Below, one piece after another: positions 2,767-61,230 of a stretch of 64,000 nucleotides of DNA. Each line of letters opens with the position of its first letter. The first letter of the stretch is position 1. The DNA is from an uncultured Bdellovibrionales bacterium (GTDB lineage Bacteria > Patescibacteriota > Minisyncoccia > Moranbacterales > UBA9337). The notes below the pieces were generated by a model that was not told the origin of the DNA, made no database searches, and was given only the letters and a program-made list of their open reading frames with translations. The position numbers were made by a program, and so were the translations under genes. The DNA lies in the NCBI GenBank assembly GCA_964605525.1, contig CAZSCV010000002.1:69888-133887 (forward strand). Reading direction: 5' to 3'.

Positions 2767-4467
2767 ATGTTTTGTCAAGATGCCTCGGCTCCATTTTTAT
2801 TTCTTTTTTCCGACATAGCTCCTCAGTTGTTATATTATTCACACTTTACCGGAATAATAGCAACATTGGTTATAGGATCCTATGTTTTTTTTAAGAATAT
2901 TTCTTCCATAAGCGCGTTTTTGATTTTTATTGTGGCGATTTTGTTTTCTTTATGGTCGATTTTTGATGTAATTACTTGGGTTAATATCGACAGCAGGATT
3001 ATAATGCTTTCCTGGGGATTGATGAATTTGGTTGAACCTTTGATATACCTGACTCTTTTGTATTTTGTTTCTCATTATCTGAGAGAAAAAACCGATTATC
3101 GATTCAAATTTGTTGTGGCTATTCTTTTTCTGCCGATCTTATTTTTACTTTCGACGACATATAATTTAAAGCATTTCGACCTTTCAGTGTGCGAATCAAT
3201 ACAGGGAGAATTGATGAAGTATAATTATTCTTTCGAAATGTTATTATCCACTCTGATTATCTATTTTATTGTGAAGAATTTAATATTTGTCCGTGAAGAG
3301 ATGTCAAGGAAGCACATTGTAATATTTTCTTTAGGAGTTATATTTTTTATTATTTCTTTTTCGTGGGCGAATATAGTTGGAAATATTACTACCAATTGGG
3401 AAATAACTCAATACGGACTGTTCGGAGCTCCTGTTTTTATGGGTGTTTTGGCATATTTGATTGTTCGTTATAAAGCCTTCAATGTAAAAGTATTTGGGGT
3501 GCAGGCTTTGATGCTCTCATTGATCATTATTATCGCCTCTGAATATTTTTTTGTTGATTCTTTGGTGAATTTTGTTTTGGTCGGGATTACCTTAATTTTG
3601 GCACTTGGATTCGGATATATCCTAACTAAATCGGTCAAAAGGGATATTGAGCAAAAAGAAGAATTGGAAGTTTTGAGTCAACAATTGGTAGCGGCGAATG
3701 TTCAGCTTAAAAAACTTGATAAGGCAAAAACGGAATTTATCTCCATTGCCTCCCATCAATTGCGAACCCCGCTTACTGCCATTAAGGGGTACACTTCATT
3801 GATCATAGAAGGATCGTACGGAAAAATAAGCAAGTCAGTTGAAGCTGCATTGAAAAAAACATATAGCGCTAATGAACGTTTGATTTTGTTAGTAGAGGAC
3901 TTGCTTAATGTTTCCCGTATTGAATCGGGGCGAATGAAATATGATCTGGCAGATGTTCGCTTGGAAGATTTGGCAACTCAATCGTACGACAGTTTGATTT
4001 TAAAAGCTGAAGATGAAGGATTATATTTGAAAATCAATCTTCCAAAAAATCCATTGCCGGTTTTCCATATTGATGGGGGAAAAGTGCGAGAAGTTATTTC
4101 CAATTTTATTGATAATGCGGTTAAATATACTGAAAAGGGCGGAGTGGAAGTGAGTTTTGAAATTGATTCCCAGTCGGCGAGAATTGTGATTTCCGATACT
4201 GGAATCGGAATTCCCAAGGAAGAGCTCGCTTATCTTTTTAAGAAATTTTCTCGCGGAAAAGACACTTCACGACTCAATGCGACTGGAACAGGGTTGGGGC
4301 TTTTTGTCGGAAAAAACATCATTGAAGCGCATGGCGGAAGGGTTTGGGTTGATTCGGAAGGAATAGGAAAGGGTTCAAAATTTTACATCCAGCTTCCGCT
4401 TAAATGGGTTGATCCAAATAAAAATTCTGGGGTCGGAATGAATGAAGAGGTAAATAAAGGAAAATAG
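2767..4467 (+). CDS. sensor histidine kinase with multi-TM N-terminal sensor domain (HisKA + HATPase_c)
   Basis: H-box SIASHQLRTPLTAIKGY and G2 box GTGLGLFVGKNIIEAHGG, with about 7 predicted TM helices N-terminally. No cognate response regulator in the window. Confidence 0.8.
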   Translation: MFCQDASAPFLFLFSDIAPQLLYYSHFTGIIATLVIGSYVFFKNISSISAFLIFIVAILFSLWSIFDVITWVNIDSRIIMLSWGLMNLVEPLIYLTLLYFVSHYLREKTDYRFKFVVAILFLPILFLLSTTYNLKHFDLSVCESIQGELMKYNYSFEMLLSTLIIYFIVKNLIFVREEMSRKHIVIFSLGVIFFIISFSWANIVGNITTNWEITQYGLFGAPVFMGVLAYLIVRYKAFNVKVFGVQALMLSLIIIIASEYFFVDSLVNFVLVGITLILALGFGYILTKSVKRDIEQKEELEVLSQQLVAANVQLKKLDKAKTEFISIASHQLRTPLTAIKGYTSLIIEGSYGKISKSVEAALKKTYSANERLILLVEDLLNVSRIESGRMKYDLADVRLEDLATQSYDSLILKAEDEGLYLKINLPKNPLPVFHIDGGKVREVISNFIDNAVKYTEKGGVEVSFEIDSQSARIVISDTGIGIPKEELAYLFKKFSRGKDTSRLNATGTGLGLFVGKNIIEAHGGRVWVDSEGIGKGSKFYIQLPLKWVDPNKNSGVGMNEEVNKGK

Positions 4468-4486
4468 TTTTTTTTGTCTATTTTTT

Positions 4487-4519
4487 AAAAAAGCAGACTT
4501 TTTACGAGTCTGCTTTTTA
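4487..4519. terminator. bidirectional rho-independent terminator between convergent HK gene and ispG (AAAAGCAGACT-loop-AGTCTGCTTTTT)
   Basis: Perfect 11-bp inverted repeat flanked by A/T runs on both sides. Confidence 0.7.
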
Positions 4520-6132: not shown

Positions 6133-7527
6133 ATGAATCCAATTGATAAAAGCAAACGAAACAAAAAAAGGAGTGTAATCGCAATTGTTGCAATATTGAT
6201 GGCGGCTGGAGCGGTCTATTTATTTTTAAAAGCTGATAAAAAAGATATCCTCATGTCTTCCATTTCTGCGATTGAAAAAGTGTCCCGATTATTGCCAATA
6301 GAAAAAGATACGAAAGCGGAAATTTCCGCCATAGACAAATTATCCCAAGAACTTCTTAAGAAAGATGATGTCGAAAGAAGATATTTGATTTTGCTTCAGA
6401 ATAACATGGAATTGCGCCCCGGAGGAGGATTTTTGGGTCAATATGCGATTTTAAAGGTGAAAAATGGCGAGGTGGCATCCACTCAAATTGAAGACGCGAA
6501 TTTGCTTGACCAGCGGATTACGGCGAAAGTAACTCCGCCATATCCTTTCAAGCAGAAAATGCAAATCAAAAAATGGAAATTCCGCGATTCCAATTTTTCA
6601 CCGAATTTTCCAACTAATGCCGAGAAAGCCAAATATTTTTACCGCCTTAGCGGTGGCAATGATAATTTTGACGGAGTAATTGCTGTTAACTCTGATGTGT
6701 TTTCCAATGTCTTGAAACTGACCGGTCCGATAGTGGTTCCTGGTTACTCAACTGAATTTATCAGTGAAAACGCAGTTTTAAAATTGGAAGAAATTGTTGA
6801 AAAAGCATATATTAACAATGCCGCACTTGATTCCACTAACCGAAAATCAATAATGAAAAGTATGGGTCCGGTGATTATTGAAAAATTGGCGCACATTAAT
6901 AATATTCCGAAAATTTCCGAATTTGTTCTTGAAGAGTTACGCAATAAAAACGTGATGTTTAACTTTCGCGATGAGCAGTTGCAGGCGGAAGTGGAAAAAG
7001 TGCATTGGGACGGAGAAGTGGAGCAGGAATGGAGCGATGATTATTTGATGATGGTTGATGCGAATATGGGAGCGCTTAAATCCGATTATTATATGGACAG
7101 GGAAATTAGTTACAATCTTGATTTGACAGCAGAAAAACCAACAGCTGAATTGCGTATTTTGTATAAGCATAATGCAACTTATGGAGATTGGAGGACTAGC
7201 GATTACCATTCATATTTGCGGGTATATGCGCCAAAAGGGTCAACTCTTTTGGAGCGGAAAATGATCAGCTCTCCTTTGACACAGGAGGAATTTGGAAAGA
7301 CTTATTTTGGAGCGATGGTGGATGTTTTGATTGGGGGACAGACGGAAGCATATCTTAAATATGAACTCCCGGTAGAATTTAAAAGTAAAGATTACCGGCT
7401 ATTAGTCCAAAAACAATCAGGAGTGGGGGATGTTCCAATTAAAGTTCATATGAAAAATAACGATGGAGAATTTGATTATGAGGGAATATTGAAAAAAGAT
7501 TTGCATTTGGAATTTGGAAAAGAATAA
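6133..7527 (+). CDS. DUF4012 domain membrane-anchored protein
   Basis: N-terminal TM helix plus the hallmark LRPGGGFLGQYA motif of DUF4012. Confidence 0.6.
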   Translation: MNPIDKSKRNKKRSVIAIVAILMAAGAVYLFLKADKKDILMSSISAIEKVSRLLPIEKDTKAEISAIDKLSQELLKKDDVERRYLILLQNNMELRPGGGFLGQYAILKVKNGEVASTQIEDANLLDQRITAKVTPPYPFKQKMQIKKWKFRDSNFSPNFPTNAEKAKYFYRLSGGNDNFDGVIAVNSDVFSNVLKLTGPIVVPGYSTEFISENAVLKLEEIVEKAYINNAALDSTNRKSIMKSMGPVIIEKLAHINNIPKISEFVLEELRNKNVMFNFRDEQLQAEVEKVHWDGEVEQEWSDDYLMMVDANMGALKSDYYMDREISYNLDLTAEKPTAELRILYKHNATYGDWRTSDYHSYLRVYAPKGSTLLERKMISSPLTQEEFGKTYFGAMVDVLIGGQTEAYLKYELPVEFKSKDYRLLVQKQSGVGDVPIKVHMKNNDGEFDYEGILKKDLHLEFGKE

Positions 7528-7570: not shown

Positions 7571-7681
7571 ATGAAGAACAAGAGATTTCGGAAGAATATA
7601 TATAGGATTTGGGTGGTTATTTCCCTTTTTGCAGTTATTGCAATGATTGTGTTTCTGATCGCGCCTCTTTTTTTGTATTAA
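7571..7681 (+). CDS. possible 36-aa single-TM peptide upstream of ftsB-like gene
   Basis: Small ORF MKNKRFRKNIYRIWVVISLFAVIAMIVFLIAPLFLY, below the ORF-track cutoff. Speculative. Confidence 0.2.
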   Translation: MKNKRFRKNIYRIWVVISLFAVIAMIVFLIAPLFLY

Positions 7682-7700
7682 AAAATAAAATTCCAACTGA

Positions 7701-8102
7701 ATGAAAAAGACGGGCTTAATAATTTCTTTCGGTGTGATTTTCGGCGGATTAGCTTTAATAGCAATGTTGCTTTATCCTTCATATAAGGAATACGAAAGAA
7801 ACAAGCGTATCAATGGTGAAATTGAAAAATTAAGCCAAGAAGCGGAAAAATTACGGGAGAACAATTCTGAATTAAGCGAGAAAATCGAGTATTTTAAAAC
7901 CCAGGCTTACAAGGAAAGGATTGCAAAAGAGAGATTGAATTTGCAAAAAACAGACGAGCAAGTTGTTGCCGTTAAACCCAGTATTTCAAAAAACGAATCT
8001 GTCGAAGTTTTGCAATTAAACAAGGGTGATGAAAATAAATTAGGCAAAATTGAATCTCCGAATTATCAAAAATGGATCAGGTATTTTTTTGGAAATTTAT
8101 AA
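7701..8102 (+). CDS. septum formation initiator family protein (FtsB/DivIC-like)
   Basis: N-terminal TM followed by a coiled-coil with leucine heptads (INGEIEKLSQEAEKLRENNSELSEKIEYFK). Confidence 0.55.
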   Translation: MKKTGLIISFGVIFGGLALIAMLLYPSYKEYERNKRINGEIEKLSQEAEKLRENNSELSEKIEYFKTQAYKERIAKERLNLQKTDEQVVAVKPSISKNESVEVLQLNKGDENKLGKIESPNYQKWIRYFFGNL

Positions 8103-19076: not shown

Positions 19077-19149
19077 GCCACCTTAGCTCAGCTGGTAGAG
19101 CGGCTGTTTTGTAAACAGCGGGTCGTCGGTTCAAGTCCGGCAGGTGGCT
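19077..19149 (+). tRNA. tRNA-Thr (anticodon UGU)
   Basis: Cloverleaf folded by hand: acceptor GCCACCT/AGGTGGC, D arm GCTCAGCTGGTAGAGC, anticodon stem GCTGT/ACAGC with loop TTTGTAA, T arm GTCGGTTCAAGTCCGGC. No encoded CCA. Confidence 0.85.
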
Positions 19150-19176
19150 CAGGGTTGAAAATTGAATAGATAAAAT

Positions 19177-19259
19177 GGGTCGGTGGCAGAGCGGTCAAAT
19201 GCATCAGACTGTAAATCTGACGTCTTCGGACTTCGGGGGTTCGATTCCCTCCCGGCCCA
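19177..19259 (+). tRNA. tRNA-Tyr (anticodon GUA; type II, long variable arm)
   Basis: Acceptor GGGTCGG/CCGGCCC, anticodon loop CTGTAAA, long variable arm CGTCTTCGGACTTCG, T loop TTCGATT. Confidence 0.8.
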
Positions 19260-19359
19260 CTTCGACTTATTGAGTAAATTAGGATCAAGTCGATAGACTA
19301 GTTATGTTTCACAATGGAGTAGATTTTTTATTGTATCTTTTTGTGCTAATATAGTTTAC

Positions 19360-19950
19360 ATGAAGATAACAAAAGAAAAATTAGAACATTATTATTTTGC
19401 AAAAAAAATGTCGGTCAAAGAAATGACTAATGTTTTTATAAGAAGTGAAACATGTATTAGTTATTGGATGAAAAAATATGGAATAAAGAAAAGAACGATA
19501 AGCGAATCTGTATATTTAAAAAATAATCCGAATGGTGATCCATTTAAGATAAGGAAGGATTTAAACAGTGAGTTGACGGAATTAAAAGGAATAGGTATAG
19601 GGTTATATTGGGGTGAGGGAAACAAACGAAATAAAAATTCTATAAAAATTGGGAATACTGACCCAGCGTTAATAAAAAAATTTATAGAATTTTTAGTAAA
19701 AATTTTAGGAGTAAAAAGAAAAAATATACGTTTTTCTTTGCAGGTTTTTAGTGATATGAATTCAGAAAAAGCCAAGAGATATTGGTTAGAAGAATTAAAA
19801 GTTGACCCTGCGCAATTTTCAAAAAAAATAACCATAACTCATTCCGGAAAAGTCGGTAATTATAAAAGAAAAACGCAATACGGTGTTCTCACGATGTATT
19901 ATCACAATACAAAGTTGAGAAATATTTTAATTGCAATGTTGCCGTTGTAG
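19360..19950 (+). CDS. free-standing putative LAGLIDADG-like homing endonuclease (N-terminal HTH-like segment)
   Basis: GIGLYWGEGNK followed by ALIKKFIEFLVKILGV resembles the LAGLIDADG helix plus the following scaffold helix (compare I-CreI LAGFVDGDGS...LDKLVDEIGVG). Sits between two tRNA genes, and its last 10 nt overlap the 5' end of the intron-containing tRNA. Assignment is by motif only. Confidence 0.35.
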   Translation: MKITKEKLEHYYFAKKMSVKEMTNVFIRSETCISYWMKKYGIKKRTISESVYLKNNPNGDPFKIRKDLNSELTELKGIGIGLYWGEGNKRNKNSIKIGNTDPALIKKFIEFLVKILGVKRKNIRFSLQVFSDMNSEKAKRYWLEELKVDPAQFSKKITITHSGKVGNYKRKTQYGVLTMYYHNTKLRNILIAMLPL

Positions 19951-20213
19951 CTCAGTTGGTAGAGCACATCCATGGTAAATTAAAAACTGCCCATTGATTA
20001 GGAAACTTTTCATTGAATCCCGAATAACGGTTAAAGACCTAGCACGAGGTTCAGACCGTGGCGAAATTTTCGCCCGAACGACTGACAAGGGGGACTAAGT
20101 CTTTGGAATACATTGATATGTTCAATATACAGTCTAGTTCTCTTATATAGGTGTTTTAAAAAAAAGAGATAGCAATGAAGGATGAGGTCCGCGGTCCGAT
20201 TCCGCGCAACGGC
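19941..20213 (+). tRNA. tRNA-Thr (anticodon GGU) gene interrupted in the anticodon loop: exon 1 at 19941-19976, exon 2 at 20177-20213
   Basis: Exon 1 is GCCGTTG TA GCTCAGTTGGTAGAGC A CATCC ATGGT. Exon 2 is AA GGATG AGGTC CGCGGTCCGATTCCGCG CAACGGC T. Acceptor stem 7/7 and anticodon stem CATCC/GGATG 5/5. Joined loop is ATGGTAA (U33, A37). Confidence 0.75.
19977..20176 (+). mobile_element. group I-like intron (200 nt) in tRNA-Thr(GGU) anticodon loop, inserted after nt 36
   Basis: 5' exon ends in U and the intron ends in G (omega-G). R-like element CGAACGACUGACA and S-like element AUAUACAGUCUAG can form P7 (GACUG/CAGUC). Size is comparable to the 205-nt Azoarcus tRNA-Ile intron. The P1/IGS pairing is only partly resolved by eye. 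Confidence 0.6.
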
Positions 20214-20256
20214 TCAGAGGAAGGTAAATATGTTAATATGTTAAAATGTAAAATAT

Positions 20257-20418
20257 TATGGCAAAGACAAAGGAAAATCTGGTTAAATTCAAATGCAATG
20301 AGTGCAAAAAAATAACTCATTATTCTAATCGTAACAAAAAGAAATTGAAAGAGAAATTGGAAATGAAAAAATATTGCAAATTCTGCAAAAAGCATACTCT
20401 GCACAAGGAAGCGAAATA
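20257..20418 (+). CDS. rpmG: 50S ribosomal protein L33 (zinc-ribbon type)
   Basis: MAKTKENLVKFKCNECKKITHYSNRNKKKLKEKLEMKKYCKFCKKHTLHKEAK has the CxxC...CxxC L33 signature. Below the ORF-track size cutoff. Confidence 0.85.
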
Positions 20419-20448
20419 ATTTGACAAAAGTCCGCCCTGGCGGACAAA

Positions 20449-20519
20449 GGCGGGTGTCGTACAGTGGCAGTACGTTGGTCTCCAAAACCAATAACGGGAG
20501 TTCGATTCTCTCCACCCGT
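20449..20519 (+). tRNA. tRNA-Trp (anticodon CCA)
   Basis: Acceptor GCGGGTG/CACCCGT (G1.U72), D stem GTAC/GTAC, anticodon stem TTGGT/ACCAA with loop CTCCAAA, T arm GGGAGTTCGATTCTCTC. Preceded by a GTCCGCC-ctg-GCGGAC hairpin. Confidence 0.75.
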
Positions 20520-20530
20520 GCATATCAATT

Positions 20531-20557
20531 AAAAAACGCTTGAATAAGGCGTTTTTT
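20531..20557 (+). terminator. rho-independent terminator after tRNA-Trp
   Basis: AACGC-ttgaataag-GCGTT stem followed by T6. Confidence 0.6.
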
Positions 20558-20687
20558 ACGTTTTTGCTGTAGGTTTATTTGACACACAATGATTTTTATG
20601 CTATCATAAGTAGTTATTGAGGAATAACCCTCAATACAATCCTCAGCGATCGAGGGATCACTCTCGACGCAAAAAAGGAGGCCAGTT

Positions 20688-21122
20688 ATGGCAAATTTAG
20701 TTCTTATTGGTAAAGAAGGACAAATCAAGGCAAAGTTATCCTGCTCTGCATCCTTGCCTCCGGACTTCAAAGTTCCGGAAGGCTGCATTTTAAGCTGGGA
20801 TGATCAGCCGCATCGTGCCGAAGGATGGTATAAGGGCAACCAGAATCGTGGTCCGGAAATCATCAAGCACAGGAGTGCAAGCGCAGTACTGAGGAACTAC
20901 CATCCTACAGTTCATATTCGAATCGAGAGTTCGGATGCCAGAGATCTGTTTGAGCTGATTGAGATCGTATGGCTGCACATTGGCGGAACAGTTATCCCTG
21001 CCAGATGGCCAGCCGAGAGAGATCAATCGTTTATCGCTGGCGTTCAGGGTGATTGCAGGCGATTGAAGGATGGGATTGTTCGGGTCAAACAAGTCATTGG
21101 AATGAAACTCGCCTCTCTCTAG
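20688..21122 (+). CDS. hypothetical protein, compositionally foreign (about 50% GC)
   Basis: Strong RBS AAGGAGG 7 nt upstream. GC and codon usage unlike the flanking genes. No recognised family. Confidence 0.55.
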   Translation: MANLVLIGKEGQIKAKLSCSASLPPDFKVPEGCILSWDDQPHRAEGWYKGNQNRGPEIIKHRSASAVLRNYHPTVHIRIESSDARDLFELIEIVWLHIGGTVIPARWPAERDQSFIAGVQGDCRRLKDGIVRVKQVIGMKLASL

Positions 21123-21207
21123 GGGGGGGTGGCATAAGCTAATGATGCAAACGAAAGGGTTCTCTAGCCGAGCTAGTTGATCCCTTTTTTGTTTATTGAA
21201 TGATGGG

Positions 21208-21244
21208 CCAGTGATTTACAACAGACCATCACTGGTCTTTTTTA
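21208..21244 (+). terminator. rho-independent terminator (CCAGTGAT...ATCACTGG + T-run) fused to repeat copy A
   Basis: 8-bp perfect stem followed by TCTTTTTT. Confidence 0.65.
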
Positions 21245-21340
21245 TTTCATCAAAACCATCGCTCTCTCCAATCTAATTTCAATCACATCCCAATTCTCCA
21301 ATATATTGGTTCGAAGCGTGTACCCTAGTCTGTGCAAAAT
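21238..21340. repeat. copy A of a roughly 105-bp intergenic repeat family (TTTTTTATTTCATCAAAACC...CCAATATATTGGTTCGAAGCGTGTACCCTAGTCTGTGCAA)
   Basis: Near-identical to copy C at 31786-31886; diverged copy B at 22969-23071. Contains the 12-bp perfect palindrome CCAATATATTGG. Confidence 0.8.
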
Positions 21341-21601
21341 AAAGCAGTTTTCTTTACGGAGGCTGTTTTTTTTGTCAGAAAATCTTTTTTAGCGTAACTT
21401 CTTTTTCTTCCATAGCGTTAATTGAGTTAACCCTCCAGTTTACCAGAAAAAGGGGCTTCGGGGTTTGAATTCGGGCCATGGCTGAGGGCTGGACATTTTT
21501 ATTTATTTGTGCAATAATCAAATGTTGCCAAATGATTGGCATCCCTTGAATGCAGGTGGCATTCACAGTTCCTAAAACCCTAAAATGGGAAAGGAGATGC
21601 T

Positions 21602-22915
21602 ATGAAAACGAAAGGGGAAAAAGATGGCTTGTTGGGAGGTGCAATGGCTTTCTATCATGATAAGGGCTTTGTTCCTGCATTTAAGCAAGCAATGCGATAT
21701 GCTGCAGGACGTGCTGGCCGAGTTGGGACTATGCTGGACTGGGTGGATGCACGATTAGCAATACCGCCGTACGAAAAACTGGGCATGCATGACACATCAA
21801 ATCCAACTCCTTGGGATCAGTACTACACAACCATGTCTGCTGAGTATGTTGGTATCAGCAAGGGTGGAACCAAAATCTTGATCGTTGCTCATGGTATCGG
21901 ACCAATGGCAACACTTGATGGTGTCGTCGAAGCATATCGATATCATTATAATGATAAGACACGCCGGACTGAGGGTGGCCGTATTTCAGTGGAGGAGTTC
22001 CGGAAGCTTGAGAGTGGCATCTATGGTGACGTGGTGATTGTCGATCTTGAAGAGTATGTATTTGAGCGTGAGTATCCGTTCATTGCAACTCTCCACTATT
22101 TTGATGCACTGGATGACTCAGTGCTTAAGGCTCGCCTTGGCTCAAGGGCTGATGAGTACATTGAGCAACATGCAAATTATGCAAGGAAATACCATCTGGA
22201 TGCTCATCAGCGTATGATTATAGATCCCTACATTATAGGGAACGAAGGACCGGGAATGTACTGGGTCAAAAATACCAAGCCCGAAGATGGTCTTGCATAT
22301 GCTCATCTTCTGAGCGTCGGTGCGATTACGAATTTACATGTCAGCCAAAGCGAGCATCGGGTCCCCAGCTGGGTGTCTGATGTGAACACACATGGTTGGT
22401 ATGACGGTACTCGCCTGATTGGTATTCCTGAGGGTAAGCTTGCATCTATCGGCAAAGGCCCTGATGCATATCGCCTGCTGCGCAAGCACTGGCAAGAGCT
22501 TTTTGAGCCGAGTGGTCTCAACCGCTCACCCGATGGGCTCTTCGTTCTGATGCAAATGCCGGACAAGACGTGGTTCACGCAGTTCCAGAAGAAGGGAGCT
22601 AGCGCTGACAGCTACGAACCGGAATTCCGTGTGACGTCGATGGAGAAGGTGGGGGAACTTGCTCGGTTTTACACCGAGTCGAACTATCCCGTCCCGATCT
22701 TCCGATACGACATCCGCGAGGCGCAGGCTGTGCTTTCCAAAGAAACCAATGCTTACGAACTCGTTGGTGATCCGACCAAGACAGGTGGTGCTGATAGTCA
22801 GGAGACCTGTCTCGTGCAGGGCTATCGCATCGAAATTGACCATACGCAACGGCTTATGCGACAAGAAGTATTGGCCAATAATTACGAAAAGATGATGCAG
22901 CTTCACGAGAAGTAA
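21602..22915 (+). CDS. hypothetical protein, compositionally foreign (about 50% GC), 437 aa
   Basis: RBS GGAAAGGAG; no recognisable domain by inspection. Confidence 0.55.
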   Translation: MKTKGEKDGLLGGAMAFYHDKGFVPAFKQAMRYAAGRAGRVGTMLDWVDARLAIPPYEKLGMHDTSNPTPWDQYYTTMSAEYVGISKGGTKILIVAHGIGPMATLDGVVEAYRYHYNDKTRRTEGGRISVEEFRKLESGIYGDVVIVDLEEYVFEREYPFIATLHYFDALDDSVLKARLGSRADEYIEQHANYARKYHLDAHQRMIIDPYIIGNEGPGMYWVKNTKPEDGLAYAHLLSVGAITNLHVSQSEHRVPSWVSDVNTHGWYDGTRLIGIPEGKLASIGKGPDAYRLLRKHWQELFEPSGLNRSPDGLFVLMQMPDKTWFTQFQKKGASADSYEPEFRVTSMEKVGELARFYTESNYPVPIFRYDIREAQAVLSKETNAYELVGDPTKTGGADSQETCLVQGYRIEIDHTQRLMRQEVLANNYEKMMQLHEK

Positions 22916-22930
22916 AAGCATCGAAATCCT

Positions 22931-22974
22931 GCGGAGCCGCACCCACAGCAATATGTGGGTCGCGGCTCTTTTTT
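22931..22974 (+). terminator. rho-independent terminator (GAGCCGC...GCGGCTC + T6) fused to repeat copy B
   Basis: Long GC-rich stem-loop followed by a T-run. Confidence 0.6.
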
Positions 22975-23071
22975 ATTTCATCAAAATTCTTACTTGCTCT
23001 AATTTTGCCTTAACACTTTCCCAATTTTCCACCATTAAAGTTCGAAGTATATACCTTCTCCTGTGCTGATG
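22969..23071. repeat. copy B (diverged) of the roughly 105-bp repeat family
   Basis: Shares TTTTTTATTTCATCAAAA...CCAATTTTCC...AGTTCGAAGTATATACC...GTGCTGATG with copies A and C. A further right-end fragment is at about 23868-23915. Confidence 0.65.
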
Positions 23072-54408: not shown

Positions 54409-55039
54409 ATTTCTCCATTTTTATTATATCTTTAATTTCTTCAAAAATCACATTCTGATCCCTGTTTCCGTCAATTGTTTTTAGATCCCAAATTTTTACC
54501 GCCGCGTCATACAAAGATCTTTTTTCTTTGAGATATTCCACTCCTTGGTCAGGCTTGCGCTGGCGATTCATGATAATCTTTGGATCAACTGCAAGATAAA
54601 TCCCAAGAAATGGCTGCTCGATTTTATAATTTTTCAAATTTTCTGCATCGAAATTTTTCAAAAGATATTGGATGTTAATCGCACTATCATAAAAAAACCG
54701 GTCGCTGAGAATATAATTAAAATCTCGGCTTTCCAATTCGCGCTTTAATTTTTCAAATCTTAATTGATCGATTTTTAGCGCCAACTTGCGAAGCTGGATT
54801 TGTATTAGATTGGCTTTCGTGACACTTTTTTTCATATTCGGTTGAATTTGGCACAAGCCTTTGATTTTGCAAATCAAGCAATATTTTTTCTTTAATTCCG
54901 CCAATTTGGTGGCGATGCCGAATTCGATGGCATGGAAATAAAAAACCCGCTTGCCTTGCGACTGGAGATAAGTTTTGAGCATTTGGATCTGGGTGGATTT
55001 GCCCGACCCGTCCAACCCAGAAATGGTGATTATTTTCAT
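54407..55039 (-). CDS. thymidylate kinase-like P-loop nucleotide kinase
   Basis: ISGLDGSGKSTQ P-loop, DRFFYDS (DRY-like) and YLAVDPKIIMNRQ lid-like motif; unusual insertion in the middle. Confidence 0.45.
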   Translation of the reverse strand: MKIITISGLDGSGKSTQIQMLKTYLQSQGKRVFYFHAIEFGIATKLAELKKKYCLICKIKGLCQIQPNMKKSVTKANLIQIQLRKLALKIDQLRFEKLKRELESRDFNYILSDRFFYDSAINIQYLLKNFDAENLKNYKIEQPFLGIYLAVDPKIIMNRQRKPDQGVEYLKEKRSLYDAAVKIWDLKTIDGNRDQNVIFEEIKDIIKMEK

Positions 55040-55148
55040 ATTTTAGTAAATTTATGGTAAAATGTATTCATAAGGCAGTATGATTACATCAAAATCATAC
55101 CACAAACCTTAATTTGAGCCAAATTATAGGCAGGTACGGATAAAACTA

Positions 55149-55347
55149 GTTCGGGGAAATCGCTCGCTCGGACTAAGGTCCTCGCTCGCTCTGATTTCCC
55201 CGAACGGGCGCGGCTTACAGCCTCGTTCTCCGATGCCGCTCGCAGTCCTGCGGCCTTGCTCTGCGACATCTCCGAACTCGGCTTATGCGAAATGCCTGTC
55301 GAAAAATTTCATTTTTCTCCAGACACATCGCATAAGCCGCGCCCGTT
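55149..55347. mobile_element. GC-rich (about 60%) 199-bp hairpin element, copy 1 (MITE/IS200-605-like non-autonomous element or structured RNA)
   Basis: Identical to copy 2. Nested inverted repeats GTTCGGGGAAATC/GATTTCCCCGAAC, GGGCGCGGCTTA/TAAGCCGCGCCC and CGGCTTATGCGAT/ATCGCATAAGCCG. Confidence 0.7.
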
Positions 55348-55424
55348 ATCGGAAATGAATTCATTTTTGTCCCTTTAAAATATAATAAAAAATTAGAATT
55401 GGGCTAATATACGGAGGGAGGATT

Positions 55425-55538
55425 ATGAAAAAGAAGGAAGAAGAATTTCCAGGTGTTAATTTCATGAATCGTTTTTGGGTGGCAATACTTGTCATATGTA
55501 TAATGTACATTATATTTTTCGTTGAATTTCCAAAGTAA
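55425..55538 (+). CDS. possible 37-aa membrane peptide
   Basis: Strong RBS GGAGGGAGG 6 nt upstream; MKKKEEEFPGVNFMNRFWVAILVICIMYIIFFVEFPK. Speculative. Confidence 0.25.
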   Translation: MKKKEEEFPGVNFMNRFWVAILVICIMYIIFFVEFPK

Positions 55539-55900
55539 CACCCTCACTATTCTAAGGCGGAAACATCTGCCGTGATAAAGCGTGAACGAACAGCCCACGT
55601 TCACGCCCAATTCTAATTTTTTATAACCAAAAGGAAGGACAAAAATAAATTTACATCCGACAACAAAGAATATCTGGTTCAAAAAATTTGCCGCAGTTAA
55701 AACTAAAAGGAGGGCAAATTTTTCTCTCCCAAATCCCGCACTTTTCCGTTTTGCTGCAATTTAGAGTATAATTAAACTAATAAAGAAGTAAGGATATTAA
55801 AGTTTTGTGCCTATAAACCAAAGTGCAGGACTTCAGATATTCTTAAACGTTGGACGAAATTATAAATTGACCCTTTATTTGGTATTGTAATACGGATCGC

Positions 55901-56392
55901 ATGAATACATTTTTTTATCTACTATTGATATACATCATCTTTTGTAAAGTTTGGCCATATTTTTTTTATCCAAATTATTTGAAGAAATCAAAAATTGAAA
56001 ACTATCCTGAATTAAAAGAATTATCTTCAAAACTAACAGGAAATAGTAAGCTTCAAACTGTTGAAAATGTGTATGAATATATGCGACAAACTTATTCCGG
56101 CAATGACGACGTTTTGAAGATAGAAAATTTATTGAGCGTTTTCAATTTTGGTGATTTCTCAACTAAGGGCATCTTGGATAAAAAAATATTTCTATGGTGT
56201 CATGGACAAAATCGATTACTCAAGTCTGTTCTGATTAATACTGGTTTGTTTAAAGATGATGATATAACTATTCAAAAAAGATTATTTACATCGTTTTTTA
56301 TTCATCAATGGTTGGTGATAAATATTGACGATAAAAAAATAAAGGTAGATCCATATTACAATATTTTTAATAAGGAACTGGTCAATTTATAA
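55901..56392 (+). CDS. hypothetical N-terminally anchored protein
   Basis: ORF following an F-type repeat/promoter-like region; no family recognised. Confidence 0.4.
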   Translation: MNTFFYLLLIYIIFCKVWPYFFYPNYLKKSKIENYPELKELSSKLTGNSKLQTVENVYEYMRQTYSGNDDVLKIENLLSVFNFGDFSTKGILDKKIFLWCHGQNRLLKSVLINTGLFKDDDITIQKRLFTSFFIHQWLVINIDDKKIKVDPYYNIFNKELVNL

Positions 56393-56515
56393 CATCGTCC
56401 AACACCAAATATCTGGTTCCAAAATTTTTCACTTTATAATATAATAAGGTAAGAAAAATTTTCTCTCCCAAATTTGCTTTCGTTACACTCCAGCAAACTT
56501 CAGATATTTGGATAC
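56392..56515. repeat. F repeat (about 125 bp; ...ACACCAAATATCTGGTTCC...CTTCAGATATTTGGATACGTT), occupied target-site copy
   Basis: Near-identical to 58048-58178. Partial relatives at about 55640-55700, 55800-55860, 56725-56780, 59030-59075 and 59690-59710. Confidence 0.7.
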
Positions 56516-56714
56516 GTTCGGGGAAATCGCTCGCTCGGACTAAGGTCCTCGCTCGCTCTGATTTCCCCGAACGGGCGCGGCTTACAGCCTCGTTCTCCGA
56601 TGCCGCTCGCAGTCCTGCGGCCTTGCTCTGCGACATCTCCGAACTCGGCTTATGCGAAATGCCTGTCGAAAAATTTCATTTTTCTCCAGACACATCGCAT
56701 AAGCCGCGCCCGTT
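56516..56714. mobile_element. GC-rich 199-bp hairpin element, copy 2, inserted after GATACGTT of an F repeat
   Basis: Same sequence as copy 1. Flanks are gatacgtt|...|agacgaaatg, while the unoccupied homologous site at 58170-58188 reads gatacgtt|agctgaaata. Confidence 0.75.
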
Positions 56715-56898
56715 AGACGAAATGCCATGAAGAAATTAAGGGATGGCACATCGTCCAACACTGTATATCTGGTTTCGCAAAAGAGAAAATCTGCATAATT
56801 CTTTTCTTTTAAAATCAGCTTTTTTGTATTTTTTTGCCAAAAGAAAACCCCAGGGAAGTGTTATCCTGGGGTTCGCGTGTGTGGCAACGATTTGCCCT

Positions 56899-57201
56899 TT
56901 ACTTCTGCGGTGACGGCTCTATTTCACGCATTGTCCATTCATCGTCGTAGCGTATGGTGTGTTTTTTTCCGATTTCAAACACCATTCCCAGGATTATTCC
57001 CCGGAAGGTTACGACTCGGCCGTCCTTGAAAGTTACGACCGTCATGTTTGGCGCTCCGAGAATGGATTCCCTGGGGATGATCTGAACATTGGAAATAACC
57101 CCTGAGACTTCATGGAGATTTGCCGCCTCCACGACAACCACACTTGCTGTTGCAATGATGAGGGTCAGCACGAGAGTTAAAAGAACGATAAGCTTTTTCA
57201 T
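56899..57201 (-). CDS. small secreted hypothetical protein (signal peptide), about 47% GC
   Basis: MKKLIVLLTLVLTLIIATASVVVVEA signal peptide; RBS GGAGAAATG context. Confidence 0.45.
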   Translation of the reverse strand: MKKLIVLLTLVLTLIIATASVVVVEAANLHEVSGVISNVQIIPRESILGAPNMTVVTFKDGRVVTFRGIILGMVFEIGKKHTIRYDDEWTMREIEPSPQK

Positions 57202-57426
57202 GTCATTTCTCCTTTTCCGTTGATGTTGGTGAACTTCTGTATGACTCTATATGCTAGCACAAGATGATGGTCTTGTCAACTCCAATTTGGCAAAAAAATA
57301 CAAAAAAGTTTTAAAATAAGGTAAATTATACAGATTTTCTCTTTTGCTTCACCCAAATTTTTGCTTCTTTTATCTATTTGGAATAATATTAAGGAAGCGA
57401 GGCAAAAACTTCAGATACACAGATAC

Positions 57427-57603
57427 GTTCGGGGAAATCGCTCGCTCTGATTTCCCCGAACGGGCGCGGCTTACAGCCTCGTTCTCCGATGCCGCTCGCA
57501 GTCCTGCGGCCTTGCTCTGCGACATCTCCGAACTCGGCTTATGCGAAATGCCTGTCGAAAAATTTCATTTTTCTCCAGACACATCGCATAAGCCGCGCCC
57601 GTT
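57427..57603. mobile_element. GC-rich hairpin element, copy 3 (177 bp; lacks 22 bp of the first hairpin loop)
   Basis: Identical to copies 1 and 2 except for deletion of CGGACTAAGGTCCTCGCTCGCT. Inserted after CTTCAGATACACAGATACGTT. Confidence 0.7.
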
Positions 57604-57700
57604 GTACGAAATAGCCAGAAATTTCTTTTTATTTTTTAGATCTTTTGGCAAATAATTTTATAAATCATTAATTAATTAATTAATTAATTTAAATAATAAT

Positions 57701-58003
57701 ATGTTTGGAGAGCCAAAATTTGAAATGAAACAACCGAATGAATTTAGGGATTTGGTTGAGGACTTAGTTAAAAATAGCGAAACTCTAAAAGACAGGGTTA
57801 TCTCAATCGGTGGAATTGAAGAAAAAATAAATATTCTTGATGCGATTGAGGGCAAGGGATTGACTGATTATGCAGATGGCGCAGACGACAAAACATTAGA
57901 TGCTATTCATTGTCTTATGGCTATATATGACGAGCTAAAGAAAGATGAGCCGGATGATGATTTTATTGAAGAAACAGTCGAACGTTTAAAAGAATATTTA
58001 TAA
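57701..58003 (+). CDS. hypothetical acidic 100-aa protein
   Basis: ORF preceded by a (TTAA)6 tract at 57670-57695; no family recognised. Confidence 0.4.
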   Translation: MFGEPKFEMKQPNEFRDLVEDLVKNSETLKDRVISIGGIEEKINILDAIEGKGLTDYADGADDKTLDAIHCLMAIYDELKKDEPDDDFIEETVERLKEYL

Positions 58004-58047
58004 AATTATTTGCCAAAATATTAATAAGGAGGAAAAAATTTCTAGCT

Positions 58048-58178
58048 ACATCGCACAACACCAAATATCTGGTTCCAAAATTTTTCACTTTATAATAAAA
58101 TAAGGAAAGAAAAATTTCCTCTCCCAAATTTGCTTTCGTTACACTCCAGCAAACTTCAGATATTTGGATACGTTAGCT
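58048..58178. repeat. F repeat, unoccupied copy (target site GATACGTT|AGCTGAAAT intact)
   Basis: About 95% identical to 56392-56515 over about 125 bp, but no GC-rich element follows. Confidence 0.7.
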
Positions 58179-58348
58179 GAAATATTTTTTCATCTTTGGT
58201 GGTAATTTGTGGATTTGTGATTTAAACAAGGATAGAAAATTTGATTTTTAATTTATTTACAGAGGGGAATAAGAATGTCCCTTAATAGTTCAAAAATAAA
58301 AAACGCCCGTGGTGCTCATTGAGTCCACTGACGGCGAGATTTTCCAAA

Positions 58349-58666
58349 TTAATATCTTGGAGAAAGAGGTGATGGTTCGGGATCAAGCTGGCAACATGAA
58401 CGGTCAATCCGACCAGTTTTGCCACCATAGTATATTTCAGTACACGCTTGAATCTTATCATCTTTGGGGGATTTTATTGTGACTTTTCTGACCAATCTCC
58501 TCCCGTTTCCTTGCCATGCTCCAAATGTTGTTTGCGGAGCTCCGTGGGTCGTAAACTCCCTCATTTCCAGCATTTCAATATTATTTCCAGCACCACTGCT
58601 AATAGGCACGGAAATGATGAGGAATAAAAAAATAATAGAAAGAACTTTTGGTGTTTGCATAGTCAT
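58349..58666 (-). CDS. small secreted hypothetical protein
   Basis: Start taken at internal Met (MTMQTPKVLSIIFLFLIISVPISSGAG signal peptide). Confidence 0.35.
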   Translation of the reverse strand: MTMQTPKVLSIIFLFLIISVPISSGAGNNIEMLEMREFTTHGAPQTTFGAWQGNGRRLVRKVTIKSPKDDKIQACTEIYYGGKTGRIDRSCCQLDPEPSPLSPRY

Positions 58667-59179
58667 TATTCTCCATGGTTGCATGTTGTTAAAAGATAAT
58701 TTACGATACCAAACAACATAAGATACTAGCATATGAAATAAATAATAGCAAGGCAATGTGTAGTTGATTGGCTAGATTTTGGCTAAAATAAAGACCAATA
58801 AGGAGTTTTGGGTTTTGGGCATTCACCCCTGACCCCTCTGCCCAAAATCCAAAACAAAAATCAAATTTTCTTAGTAATAAAACAAAGTTTAAACCAATAA
58901 AAATCGAGATAAAAAATTTACATCGCATATGATTAAATATGTTAGGCGACGGAGCTAAAACTCCAACACGGCGATCCATAGCCCGCGTCATAGCCCGCGA
59001 CTGTTAAAAGCATACCAAATATGGTATGCTTTTAGTATACGAACACCAAATATCTGGTTTCACAAAAGAAAAATTTAACGGATATTTTTTATTTTTAATT
59101 GGCTCTTTTTAATTTTTTAAAAAAAGAAGTGTCTACACATGATATACACATGAGACACTCATAGATTACTCGGACAATC

Positions 59180-59437
59180 TTATTGCAGTCCGACCACTGA
59201 CTTTACTGCGATTACCCATGTTGAGTGCGAGGTAAAATGTGATGTCTTGAGTGCAGGATCTGGTTCTGACAGATTCTCCGCAGTTGAATCACTGGTCTTT
59301 TTGTAAAGATTGTGATTGACCTGCTTTTCTTCGTGCCAAAACATCATTCCGAAGCGTCCTCCAAACACTTCGTAGATTACAAAAAGGTCACCTACTGCCA
59401 AATCATCAAACTCCGGAAAACGCTTTTTCTTTTCCAT
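59180..59437 (-). CDS. hypothetical protein (85 aa)
   Basis: RBS AGGAGGAG 7 nt upstream on the minus strand. Confidence 0.45.
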   Translation of the reverse strand: MEKKKRFPEFDDLAVGDLFVIYEVFGGRFGMMFWHEEKQVNHNLYKKTSDSTAENLSEPDPALKTSHFTSHSTWVIAVKSVVGLQ

Positions 59438-59774
59438 CTTACTCCTCCTTGTTTGTTGTCAGAAATTTATGAAATTCATTGACTCAGCACTATACTCCAA
59501 AACCAAGAAAAAGTCAATCCCCGCGCCTTTAAAAAATTAAAAAGAGCCTTTATTTAATGTAAATATTCGTTAAATTTTTCTTTTGTTCCACCCAAATTCC
59601 GCGCTTTACGCTGGTTATAATCCAAAGTATAATTAAACTAATAAACCAAGAAGAATATCAAGGTTTTGTGCCATTAAACCAGTGCTAAACTTCAGATATT
59701 TGGATACGTTATCTGATGTTTATTTTTATATAATGCAATTATTGGGGGATATTTATTTTTTAACCCAGAATTCA

Positions 59775-60165: not shown

Positions 60166-61230
60166 ATGTGGATGAAAAATAAAAAAATAATATTCGTTTT
60201 GATTTTCGCCGTTTTGCTTGCGATGGTTTTGATTATTGTCGGCATGGGAAAATTTTCTTCGATGGAGCCGGACGGGGATTTGTCCGGATATGACCGGCGG
60301 GATTTCAATTTCACTTTGGAGCACGACGGAATGGAGCGGTCGTATATCGTCCATATCCCCGCCGGTTATGACAGGAATTCCGAAACGCCTTTGGTCATCG
60401 CCCTCCATGGCGGAGGAGGCGACGCCGCCAACGGTCCGGAATATTTCGGACTGAACCGGACATCCGATGAAAAAGGTTTTATTGTCGCGTATCCGGAAGG
60501 AAGCGGGAAGGAAGTTTTCGGGAAAACATTCGCGACTTGGAATGCGGGCAGGTGTTGCGGCGACGCTTTGCGGGAAAATGTCGATGACGTCGGATTTATT
60601 GCGGCGATGATCGGAAAAATGGAAACGGATTTTAATATCGATGGAAAAAGGATATTCGCGACCGGGATGTCCAACGGCGCGCAGATGGCGTACCGGCTGG
60701 CCTGCGAACTGTCGGGGAAAATCGCGGCGATCGCGCCCAGCGGTTCGCAAGGGACGTTTGATGATTGCCAGCCGGAAAGAGCGGTTCCGGTTTTCCACAT
60801 CCAGGGAAAGGCCGATCCTTGCAGTCCGTATTGGGGCGGGACGTGCGGAAGGTGTATGGCTGATTTCTGGCGGAAAATCGGCGTGCCGGCCCGTTATGAC
60901 GATTGGCAATGCGTTTCCATACCGGACTATGTCGATAAGTGGCGGACGATGAACGGCTGTTCCGAAAAAACAAATATAACTTTCAGAAACGGAGGCGCGG
61001 TCTGTTCGACATATGAAGGTTGCCAGCAGGATGCGGACGTGACCTTGTGCGCGGTTGACGGCTTGGGGCACAATTGGGCGGGAAGGGAAGGCTATAGCGT
61101 CCAAGCCTGCGAAACGGACCCGAGCGGAAAAGTATGCCAAGAGTGGGAAAGCGCCGTCGGTCCGTTAAGTCAAGACCTTCCGGCCAATGAAAAAATTTGG
61201 GAATTTTTTGAAAAGCACCCGCTGCCTTAA
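60166..61230 (+). CDS. PHB depolymerase-family esterase (LpqC/COG3509-like alpha/beta hydrolase), about 57% GC
   Basis: RSYIVHIPAGYDRNSETPLVIALHGGGG...GFIVAYPEG...GMSNGAQMAYRLACE (GxSxG nucleophile elbow); N-terminal TM anchor. Composition strongly foreign to the host. Confidence 0.7.
   Translation: MWMKNKKIIFVLIFAVLLAMVLIIVGMGKFSSMEPDGDLSGYDRRDFNFTLEHDGMERSYIVHIPAGYDRNSETPLVIALHGGGGDAANGPEYFGLNRTSDEKGFIVAYPEGSGKEVFGKTFATWNAGRCCGDALRENVDDVGFIAAMIGKMETDFNIDGKRIFATGMSNGAQMAYRLACELSGKIAAIAPSGSQGTFDDCQPERAVPVFHIQGKADPCSPYWGGTCGRCMADFWRKIGVPARYDDWQCVSIPDYVDKWRTMNGCSEKTNITFRNGGAVCSTYEGCQQDADVTLCAVDGLGHNWAGREGYSVQACETDPSGKVCQEWESAVGPLSQDLPANEKIWEFFEKHPLP

Follow-up and report, generated by a model that had tools for sequence, protein, structure and literature searches.

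We consider it quite probable that three GC-rich repeats in a 64,000-nt stretch of DNA (positions 69,888–133,887 of contig CAZSCV010000002.1, referred to here as the window) represent three copies of one gene-less ('empty') cassette belonging to an integron-like system of what is likely a Candidate Phyla Radiation (CPR)/Patescibacteria bacterium, and not the relic of a transposon as first suggested from the sequence alone (the original prediction). The 196-bp element is most likely a non-autonomous empty cassette mobilised by a recombinase. Its identification as a cassette rests on G|TT boundaries (the vertical line indicates the recombination crossover), a TT-N4-GAAAT start, an attC-like hairpin at the 3' end, a match between the R'' box and the element's own start, an orientation shared with the rest of the array in which it is found, and its membership of a conserved family.

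Both BLAST and alignment agree with the original prediction in finding the first two copies (55149–55347 and 56516–56714) to be 100% identical and the third (57427–57603) to be the same except for a 22-nt deletion. The repeated stretch is indeed 199 bp long, but as GTT is present at both ends the inserted unit is 196 bp (TT...G), which places the copies, all on the forward strand, at 55150–55345 (E1), 56517–56712 (E2, 196 bp and identical to E1) and 57428–57601 (E3, 174 bp). The deletion in E3 is in the loop of the first hairpin (H1), where it is flanked by two TCGCTCGCTC direct repeats at the hairpin tip and so resembles replication slippage. The element was correctly described as GC-rich, with a GC content of 0.58 compared to 0.37 for the window and 0.34 for the remainder of the array, and the stems originally named are present; as single-stranded DNA it folds with predicted energies of −56.6 kcal/mol (forward strand) and −62.9 kcal/mol (reverse strand), or z = −6.6 and −7.5, respectively, relative to shuffled sequences. 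Every copy opens with G|TTCGGGG and closes with GCCCG|TT, and the other cassette junctions are bounded alike. The flanks are as first reported, with AAAACTAG|TT to the left of E1, GATACG|TT to the left of E2 and E3, and TTATCGGAAAT, TTAGACGAAAT and TTGTACGAAAT to the right of E1, E2 and E3, respectively; beyond the attC consensus, the three copies share nothing in their flanks. The two longest open reading frames (ORFs) within the element found no homologues in protein searches, and blastn comparisons with plasmids and phages produced no match. No copies were found outside the array in the sequence available, which includes no complete genome, and contigs of the same species (L002–L004; L numbers denote the related contigs and loci discussed here) end within the element.

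The element is part of an array spanning 55150–59708 with the order attI–E1–c1–c2–E2–c3–E3–c4–c5, in which five AT-rich repeats (the 'F repeats', starting at 55653, 56392, 56748, 58048 and 59033) have attC anatomy, with the layout ACATC-N4-AAC (R''), L'', a variable centre, L', a spacer with three extra bases, and G|TT (R'). These attC-like sites, again on the forward strand, are located at 55653–55849 for c1 (cassette 55346–55849), 56392–56516 for c2 (cassette 55850–56516, with a 163-aa ORF; one of the repeats already noted in the original prediction) and 58048–58172 for c4 (cassette 57602–58172), and score 107, 144 and 145 bits, respectively, with R1, a covariance model of 24 neighbouring or related sites from which the element was excluded. 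Two further sites are long, that of c3 at 56748–57427 (cassette 56713–57427), which encloses a 100-aa ORF on the minus strand (56899–57201), and that of c5 at 59033–59708 (cassette 58173–59708), which encloses a minus-strand ORF (59180–59437) and ends the array. The N4 of each R'' box pairs with the start of its own cassette, found after the GTT of the preceding site, and not with the start of the next cassette (pairing per position 0.63 versus 0.33, Wilcoxon p = 4e-4, for 29 consecutive site pairs taken from the window and related loci). This pairing can be seen in c2, where GTCC-AAC (at 56398) perfectly complements its own start, GTT-GGAC, at 55849, and in c1 the corresponding sequences are CGAC-AAC and GTT-ATCG. 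Regular cassettes have inverted repeats between their start and the stretch ahead of R'', which pair at 19–26 of 30 positions, and the AA.CA mismatch at positions 9–10 from the crossover is invariant. It is this combination of attC anatomy and circular permutation which identifies 55150–59708 as a cassette array. The 'unoccupied target' originally reported at 58170 is real, but is the ordinary junction between the attC-like site of c4 and cassette c5, with others at 55849|55850 and 59708|59709; likewise, a short, non-autonomous and structured unit does sit at a precise recurring motif, but this motif, GATACG|TT, is an attC-like recombination crossover.

We note that inverted repeats of about 25 nt (and up to about 60 nt) are found in c1, c2 and c4 (55346–58172) as well as in L013, L014, L019, L021, L022 and L024. 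In c3 and c5, the ORF is inside the attC-like site, on the opposite strand and between long inverted repeats (56777–56832 / 57292–57347 in c3 and 59062–59087 / 59561–59586 in c5), and the usual cargo position of c3 is an empty 13-nt loop (56713–56760), so that ORFs occupy different loops of one hairpin scaffold. An AAGGAG-like (Shine–Dalgarno-like) motif is also conserved in attC sites of the family, near the loop of their first inner hairpin (for example at 56450–56460 in the window, and in L015, L016 and L025); given its distance to the next ORF, it is not an obvious ribosome-binding site.

The element carries the signals of a cassette itself. It starts with TT-CGGG-GAAAT, which is the same TT-N4-GAAAT signature seen in each neighbouring cassette, and two nested half-sites, which we refer to as (a) and (b), share its 3' end. 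In E1, hairpin H1 (55150–55205, forward strand) is formed by the start, TTCGGGGAAATC (55150–55161), pairing with GATTTCCCCGAA (55193–55204), followed by C55205, and provides the R''-like box of (a). The L''-like arm of (a), GGGCGCGGCTTA (55206–55217, forward strand), is together with C55205 the exact reverse complement of the last 13 nt of the element (55333–55345), and half-site (a) as a whole reads GATTTC-CCCG-AAC-GGGCGCGGCTTA. Taken together, the 3' arm of H1 and the L'' arm of (a) are antisense over 25 nt to the junction of the circular cassette (the last 13 plus the first 12 nt), and in a circle or tandem this junction would read ...CATAAGCCGCGCCCG|TTCGGGGAAATCGC... A middle hairpin (55225–55277, forward strand) then sets a third G|TT-like box, CCTCG|TT-CTCC (of which G|TT-CTCC, R'#2, is at 55225–55231), opposite the R'' box of (b), GCGACATC-TCCG-AAC (55263–55277). 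The minimal attC-like site (b) spans 83 nt of the forward strand (55263–55345 in E1, 56630–56712 in E2 and 57519–57601 in E3) and reads ACATC-TCCG-AAC-T-(CGGCTTATGCGA ... TCGCATAAGCCG)-CGCCC-G, with spacers of 1 and 5 nt which produce a bulge, an asymmetry in agreement with that of the attC family. It is matched by R1, a model built without the element, at 55261–55359 and 56628–56726 (21 bits) and at 57517–57615 (23 bits), with 15 of 15 model pairs kept and on the array (forward) strand only, the other strand scoring 7 bits. Its centre is a plain hairpin, and site (b) is an outlying, minimal member of the attC-like family.

The two half-sites support competing folds. The element's own start, CGGG, forms four of four pairs with CCCG of (a), and three of four plus one G.T with TCCG of (b). 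An integrated copy can form H1 from the start and the (a) R'' box, and an outer stem from the (a) L'' arm and the 3' end which absorbs the bulge. As a circular single strand, fold (a) has predicted energies of −55.8 (top) and −62.1 (bottom) kcal/mol using DNA parameters, with the whole L'–spacer–R' strand base-paired, and when (a) is blocked the attC-like fold (b) is found at −29.1 (top) and −33.6 (bottom) kcal/mol. Fold (b) has the 1 versus 5 spacer bases and the AA.CA mismatch of the family, neither of which are present in fold (a). E1–E3 are all in the same orientation as every other site of the array, which argues for an asymmetric active form.

Homologs of the element were sought with a motif scan of metagenomes (CCTCGT-N10-40-GCGACATC-N4-AACTCGG), which returned 92 loci; about 24 of these are true homologs and the others are chance matches in GC-rich coding sequence (a relaxed automatic element finder was rejected because it produced false stems and AT-rich false positives, and a motif-anchored parse was used instead). 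The homologs are 126–223 nt long and are all within arrays, mostly in CPR/Patescibacteria metagenome-assembled genomes (MAGs) and metagenomes. Fifteen distinct complete units from twelve lineages, including that of the window, share one architecture with the order H1, (a), CCTCG|TT-N4, a GC hairpin, GCGACATC-N4-AAC-T, L''(b), loop, L', spacer and [G/A]|TT. An alignment of these by segment had 93% of cells paired and showed compensatory changes in 25 of 38 pairs across the twelve lineages. Helix 1 (H1) covaries at 8 of 11 pairs, and helix 2 (the (a) L'' arm with the 3' end) is 99% paired and covaries at 9 of 10 pairs; helix 3 (R'#2 with (b)), which was taken by motif and not by complementarity, is 82% paired with three covarying pairs. 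At the crossover pair of fold (a), six lineages have C:G and six have T:A, with AAC retained in (b). L112 has a short form of 126 nt, which differs from the long form in lacking a 70-nt stretch (R'#2 to R''(b)). Every copy in the window and the related loci is situated at an attI or attC crossover and runs in the same direction as the attC sites, with element-like units directly at attI in L012, L018 and L025, four near-identical copies followed by four different cassettes in L018, and two copies each in L011, L025, L102 and L112. At least twelve metagenome contig ends are inside elements, as expected of multi-copy repeats.

We also observed two different element-type units in tandem right after attI and beside a recombinase gene in L068 (5176–5548). 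Another repeated ORF-less unit, present in at least four copies on the minus strand of L010 (following sites 7681–7991, 6152–6295, 4352–4494 and 2301–2440), starts with an H1-like hairpin (GTTATCTAAAACC...GGTTTTAGATAAT) and contains an extended −10-like sequence, GTGTGATATAAT; this is possibly a promoter cassette.

The original prediction regarded the element as a non-autonomous derivative of IS200/IS605 (a palindrome-associated transposable element (PATE) or miniature inverted-repeat transposable element) or as an omega-RNA relic. Under such a model, a Y1 transposase acting in trans would insert it as single-stranded DNA 3' of a CGTT target. The subterminal hairpins, the lack of a target duplication, and the identity of the CGTT at the element end with that of the left flank would all suit such an origin. 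However, the shared GTT is the integron-type crossover found at every cassette boundary, including the junctions free of the element, and the element has both the start signature of a cassette and an attC-like site. We found no tnpA or tnpB among the window ORFs scanned and no longer parent carrying either gene in the genome, metagenome or viral collections, and the homologs are all in arrays associated with a tyrosine recombinase and not with a Y1 or TnpB gene. Rfam searches at gathering thresholds and at E <= 5 recovered only tRNAs elsewhere in the sequence, and on the element only microRNA-hairpin noise of at most 27.5 bits, far below gathering scores. Taken against these results, both the transposon and the omega-RNA explanations are scarcely credible.

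The recombinase was found by examining loci related to the array. A site pattern, ATATCTGGTT-N60-90-ACTTCAGATA-N7-ACGTT, matched 16 MAGs, most of which are labelled as Parcubacteria, Patescibacteria, Falkowbacteria, Saccharibacteria, CPR3, Moraniibacteriota or WS2; R1 finds 56 sites in these loci, and of the 12 pairs of the L stem, 7 have undergone compensatory changes (24 sites). A gene for a tyrosine recombinase of about 275 aa lies upstream of and divergent from the array in 7 of the 16 loci selected by attC, and conversely, attI followed by cassettes or attC sites was present in all four distinct recombinase-selected loci with upstream DNA. Overall, L012, L015, L018, L019, L023, L024, L025, L068, L105, L118 and L120 each have a recombinase gene and a unidirectional attC array in divergent orientation, separated by attI, in locations that vary between genomes. 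The array-linked recombinases are 272–280 aa long (about 273 aa) and pass NCBIfam NF040815 ("site-specific tyrosine recombinase/integron integrase") with scores at or above the cut-off, but match TIGR02249 (integron integrase) in two stretches only and below the cut-off. The best solved relative is VchIntIA (2a3v, E = 9.5e-45), with which the alignment skips chain residues 191–240, presumably the IntI additional domain known from the IntI4 structure, and Pyrococcus XerA (4a8e) aligns over the full length. The recombinase, judged from these alignments, appears to be without the IntI additional domain of about 50 aa. The family is large, with more than 5,600 clusters at E <= 1e-40, many of them about 70% identical and in Parcubacteria, Paceibacterota and Moranbacteria. 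We found no description of integrons in CPR/Patescibacteria or of XerA-like integron integrases in the literature searched, which is not proof that they are undescribed.

It should be noted that four loci with CPR-type sites (L013, L015, L016 and L022, of which L015 also has the recombinase) are from MAGs labelled as Bdellovibrionales or Gammaproteobacteria, reflecting either misbinning or transfer outside the CPR. Downstream of the recombinase gene, one genome has scpA–scpB, whereas tmk, mnmA or a gene for a PDDEXK nuclease is found there in other genomes (L120 6001–8344 and the P0025 locus); this recombinase may also be the housekeeping Xer of those genomes. One array (the L120 / P0025 loci) holds an NTP_transf_2/HepT toxin–antitoxin pair.

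The attI consensus, TCG[C/T]ATA[A/G]-N3-5-[C/T/G]AG|TT, is found beside the recombinase in L015, L018, L019, L023, L024, L025, L068, L105, L107, L118, L120, L122 and L123. The left junction of the window, TACGGATAAAACTAG|TT, conforms to this, with the attI-like site at 55133–55149 (crossover after G55149) at the end of what would be the former recombinase–attI intergenic region (55040–55149, forward strand). The window shares synteny with L118 (glycosyltransferase, RtcB, array, recombinase, tmk-like kinase, flippase and PMT), and the 110 nt aligns to the L118 intergenic region with a score of 24 compared to 6.0 +/- 4.0 for shuffled sequences. In the window the recombinase ORF is gone and the 110 bp homologous to the recombinase–attI spacer adjoins the start codon of the kinase, from which we infer that the ORF has been deleted from this locus (the regions compared were 55037–55149 of the window and 5894–6830 of L118). 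The possibility that attI marks the dif site or terminus of this genome was rejected as there is no GC-skew switch at the locus.

The three copies might instead have come from local duplication or homologous recombination and not from site-specific insertion, as they are identical in sequence, are only 1.4 and 0.9 kb apart, and a related MAG shows a deletion between attC sites of the homologous-recombination type. However, E1 adjoins attI and the other two copies adjoin different attC sites, the three downstream cassettes differ, the boundaries are base-exact at G|TT, and the same pattern is repeated with unrelated cassettes in L018, L011, L102 and L112. With flanks that are not co-duplicated, such an origin, including a segmental triplication, is very improbable.

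If the element is an empty cassette, the recombinase would cut it out as a circle and reinsert it at attI or at attC junctions through a single strand exchange that involves a folded single strand, and repeated reinsertion would produce the three copies. Most of these events would probably be at attI, and older copies would move inward as later cassettes arrive, though direct insertion at attC would be possible too. As the local recombinase gene is deleted, mobilisation would have occurred before its loss or through a copy elsewhere acting in trans. Half-site (a) could turn the bulged site into a fully paired duplex and so act as a structural switch, with the paired state serving as a lock on the site or as a mimic of a double-stranded attI/dif-like site. 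The copy number is most simply read as that of a selfish, highly recombinogenic empty cassette, although a host function is possible.

Several observations weigh against this interpretation. The R1 scores of site (b) are weak (21–23 bits, with E between about 1e-3 and 1e-2 according to how much sequence is searched), and the site is without the three-way junction motifs of the family (GGTTC, CCCAAATT and AACTTC). Of the two folds, (a) is predicted to be the ground state, lying about 27 kcal/mol below the attC-like fold, and either of them may be the substrate. Three of the four helices were extracted through complementarity, so that their percentages of paired positions are partly circular and only the variation counts. 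A Pfam scan found no integrase or recombinase among the ORFs of the 64-kb window, and current mobility would need a copy acting in trans. An exact 22-mer of the element is absent from the genome, metagenome and viral contig collections, and no presence/absence polymorphism was observed at any single junction. The nearest comparison is L001 (a contig of MAG GCA_007376775.1), which has 99% identity to the window in the shared flanking DNA and a shorter array lacking 56528–58047 (E2, c3, E3 and c4); together with the relatives described above, this identity is the basis for assigning the bacterium to the CPR. We do not take the difference in the array as a sign of site-specific excision, as the remaining attC is a chimera of both flanking attCs and there is an N-gap inside the only element of L001, which point to homologous recombination or assembly collapse.

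A different role for the element would be that of a built-in platform module, providing either a portable insertion point (as a double-stranded attI/dif mimic) or a junction lock steering the stability of the array. Among 11 recombinase-linked loci chosen independently of the element, five have it as the unit adjoining attI (L012, L018, L025, L118 and L123; it is also at attI in L068 and L105, but both of these were found through the element itself). The architecture has persisted through deep divergence, the crossover pair of fold (a) covaries perfectly with AAC retained in (b), fold (a) pairs the whole L'–spacer–R' strand, and the attI left arm, TTCGCATAA, resembles the L' arm of the element, TCGCATAAG. 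Set against this, the element is missing from attI in 6 of the 11 loci and so is not essential, its frequency there of about 45% is, at this sample size, not clearly greater than its share of all cassettes (15–20% by our rough estimate), and the short form in L112 is without the (b) half. We regard a platform role as possible but rather unlikely.

Less probable again, and in our view doubtful, is that the element is a regulatory ORF-less cassette acting as a promoter, terminator or insulator, mRNA-stabilising hairpin or small RNA. Roles of this sort have been described for ORF-less cassettes of Treponema and Xanthomonas integrons. Promoter or small-RNA activity of ORF-less cassettes has been documented (PMC6557892; reviewed in PMC8876359), and very stable GC-rich hairpins repeated along otherwise AT-rich arrays would be compatible with such functions. 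However, no sigma-70-like promoter or hairpin-plus-T-run terminator was found in any copy, while there are 25 promoter-like sites elsewhere in the array (the promoters of CPR bacteria are unknown, making the missing sigma-70-like promoter a weak argument), and there is no Rfam family. The ends of the helices coincide with the exact cassette boundaries and pairing extends across the circular junction, which suggests a DNA recombination structure rather than an RNA.

Returning to the empty cassette, we tentatively suggest, as a broader proposal that we think could well be wrong, that there is a large and apparently undescribed lineage of integrons in the CPR/Patescibacteria, possibly proto-integrons, in which the recombinase is Xer-like and has no IntI additional domain, with a dif-like attI, three-way-junction attC sites and closing stems of about 25 bp. 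In this lineage, the element would be a conserved companion with two alternating folds, one bulged and attC-like and the other perfectly paired and mimicking attI/dif, so inserting at, or locking, attI and attC junctions. If this were true, empty cassettes and the placement of ORFs in different loops of the scaffold could bear on the origin of cassettes.

Two further regions of the window may also have been acquired. A PHB-depolymerase-type esterase gene just past the last attC (60166–61230) has a GC content of 0.49 compared to 0.37 for the genome, and may represent an acquisition or, alternatively, a terminal cassette that has decayed. Elsewhere, three tRNA genes (19077–19259 and 20450–20520) are followed by a stretch in which the GC content reaches 0.50 and which includes a 437-aa ORF (21602–22915) without a Pfam match, and the region as a whole (19077–23000) is possibly an integrated island.

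Integrons and ORF-less cassettes are both known kinds of element, and what sets those described here apart is the recombinase without the additional domain, the 11-nt R arm, the long stems, the three-way-junction attC, the ORFs inside attC and the dual-fold cassette. The account in PMC9668308 that cites Messier and Roy (2001) takes the IntI-specific additional domain around patch III as defining for integron integrases. This domain has been treated as essential as well as defining, and present integron finders depend on it, yet a recombinase without it is found in the classical integron layout in every recombinase-linked locus we inspected. If the arrays are active, integron-type gene capture would be older, broader and mechanistically more flexible than believed, and would also take place in the reduced genomes of the CPR where horizontal gene flow is poorly understood. 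Such integrons may have gone unnoticed because repeats break short-read assemblies between the recombinase and the array. A gene-less unit of about 150–220 nt with two competing folds would also be a handy substrate for investigating the recognition of folded DNA by a recombinase that has no additional domain.

The element shares short GC-rich palindromic repeats or attC targeting with IS200/IS605 PATEs, repetitive extragenic palindromic (REP) sequences and bacterial interspersed mosaic elements, group IIC-attC introns and IS1111-attC elements. It differs from these in that no Y1, RAYT, reverse-transcriptase or DEDD transposase partner was found, it has no group II intron domains recognised by Rfam, it inserts at the recombinase crossover itself, and at 196 bp it is far under the size of an intron or insertion sequence. 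Closer parallels exist with Xer/dif systems, which include XerS/difSL and XerH/difH where the recombinase gene is beside its own site, and the CTX-phage type of attP which is a folded single strand. The full-length alignment to archaeal XerA (4a8e), the site beside the gene, the two-arm core of dif-like size formed by attI and the start of the first cassette, and the use of a folded single strand as partner are all alike, whereas the many-cassette arrays with integron-type permutation, the absence of a GC-skew switch at the window locus and the varied genomic locations are not. The arrangement is also that of classical integrons (those with IntI, attI and attC arrays, and sedentary chromosomal integrons such as the VCR (Vibrio cholerae repeat) arrays of Vibrio), with a divergent recombinase gene, attI and a unidirectional array of small cassettes, attC sites that have the R''/L''/L'/R' layout, AAC/GTT cores and extra bases on the bottom-strand R'–L' arm and are homogeneous within a lineage, and an R' completed by the next cassette. 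In contrast to classical integrons, the recombinase of about 273 aa is without the additional domain by which membership is judged, an 11-nt box (TT-N4-GAAAT / ACATC-N4-AA) that includes an invariant AA.CA mismatch makes up the R arm, the stem closing the cassette reaches about 25 bp compared to the 7-bp core pairing of classical attC, and the sites share a three-way junction, conserved along with its invariant unpaired motifs, and in some cases contain an ORF. The element itself is most comparable to the ORF-less cassettes known from classical integrons (PMC6557892, PMC8876359). Like those of Treponema (from oral metagenomes), Xanthomonas and Vibrio, it has no ORF, is bounded by G|TT, has its own attC-type site at the 3' end, is found in a cassette array where it is at times first, and is presumed to be mobilised in trans by the integron recombinase. 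Unlike them, it has no promoter-like signal, is linked to a recombinase without the IntI additional domain, and combines two nested R''–L'' half-sites on one L'–R' arm, one of which is a perfect antisense copy of the junction, in a family which is divergent in sequence but conserved in architecture across lineages and present in multiple copies within arrays.

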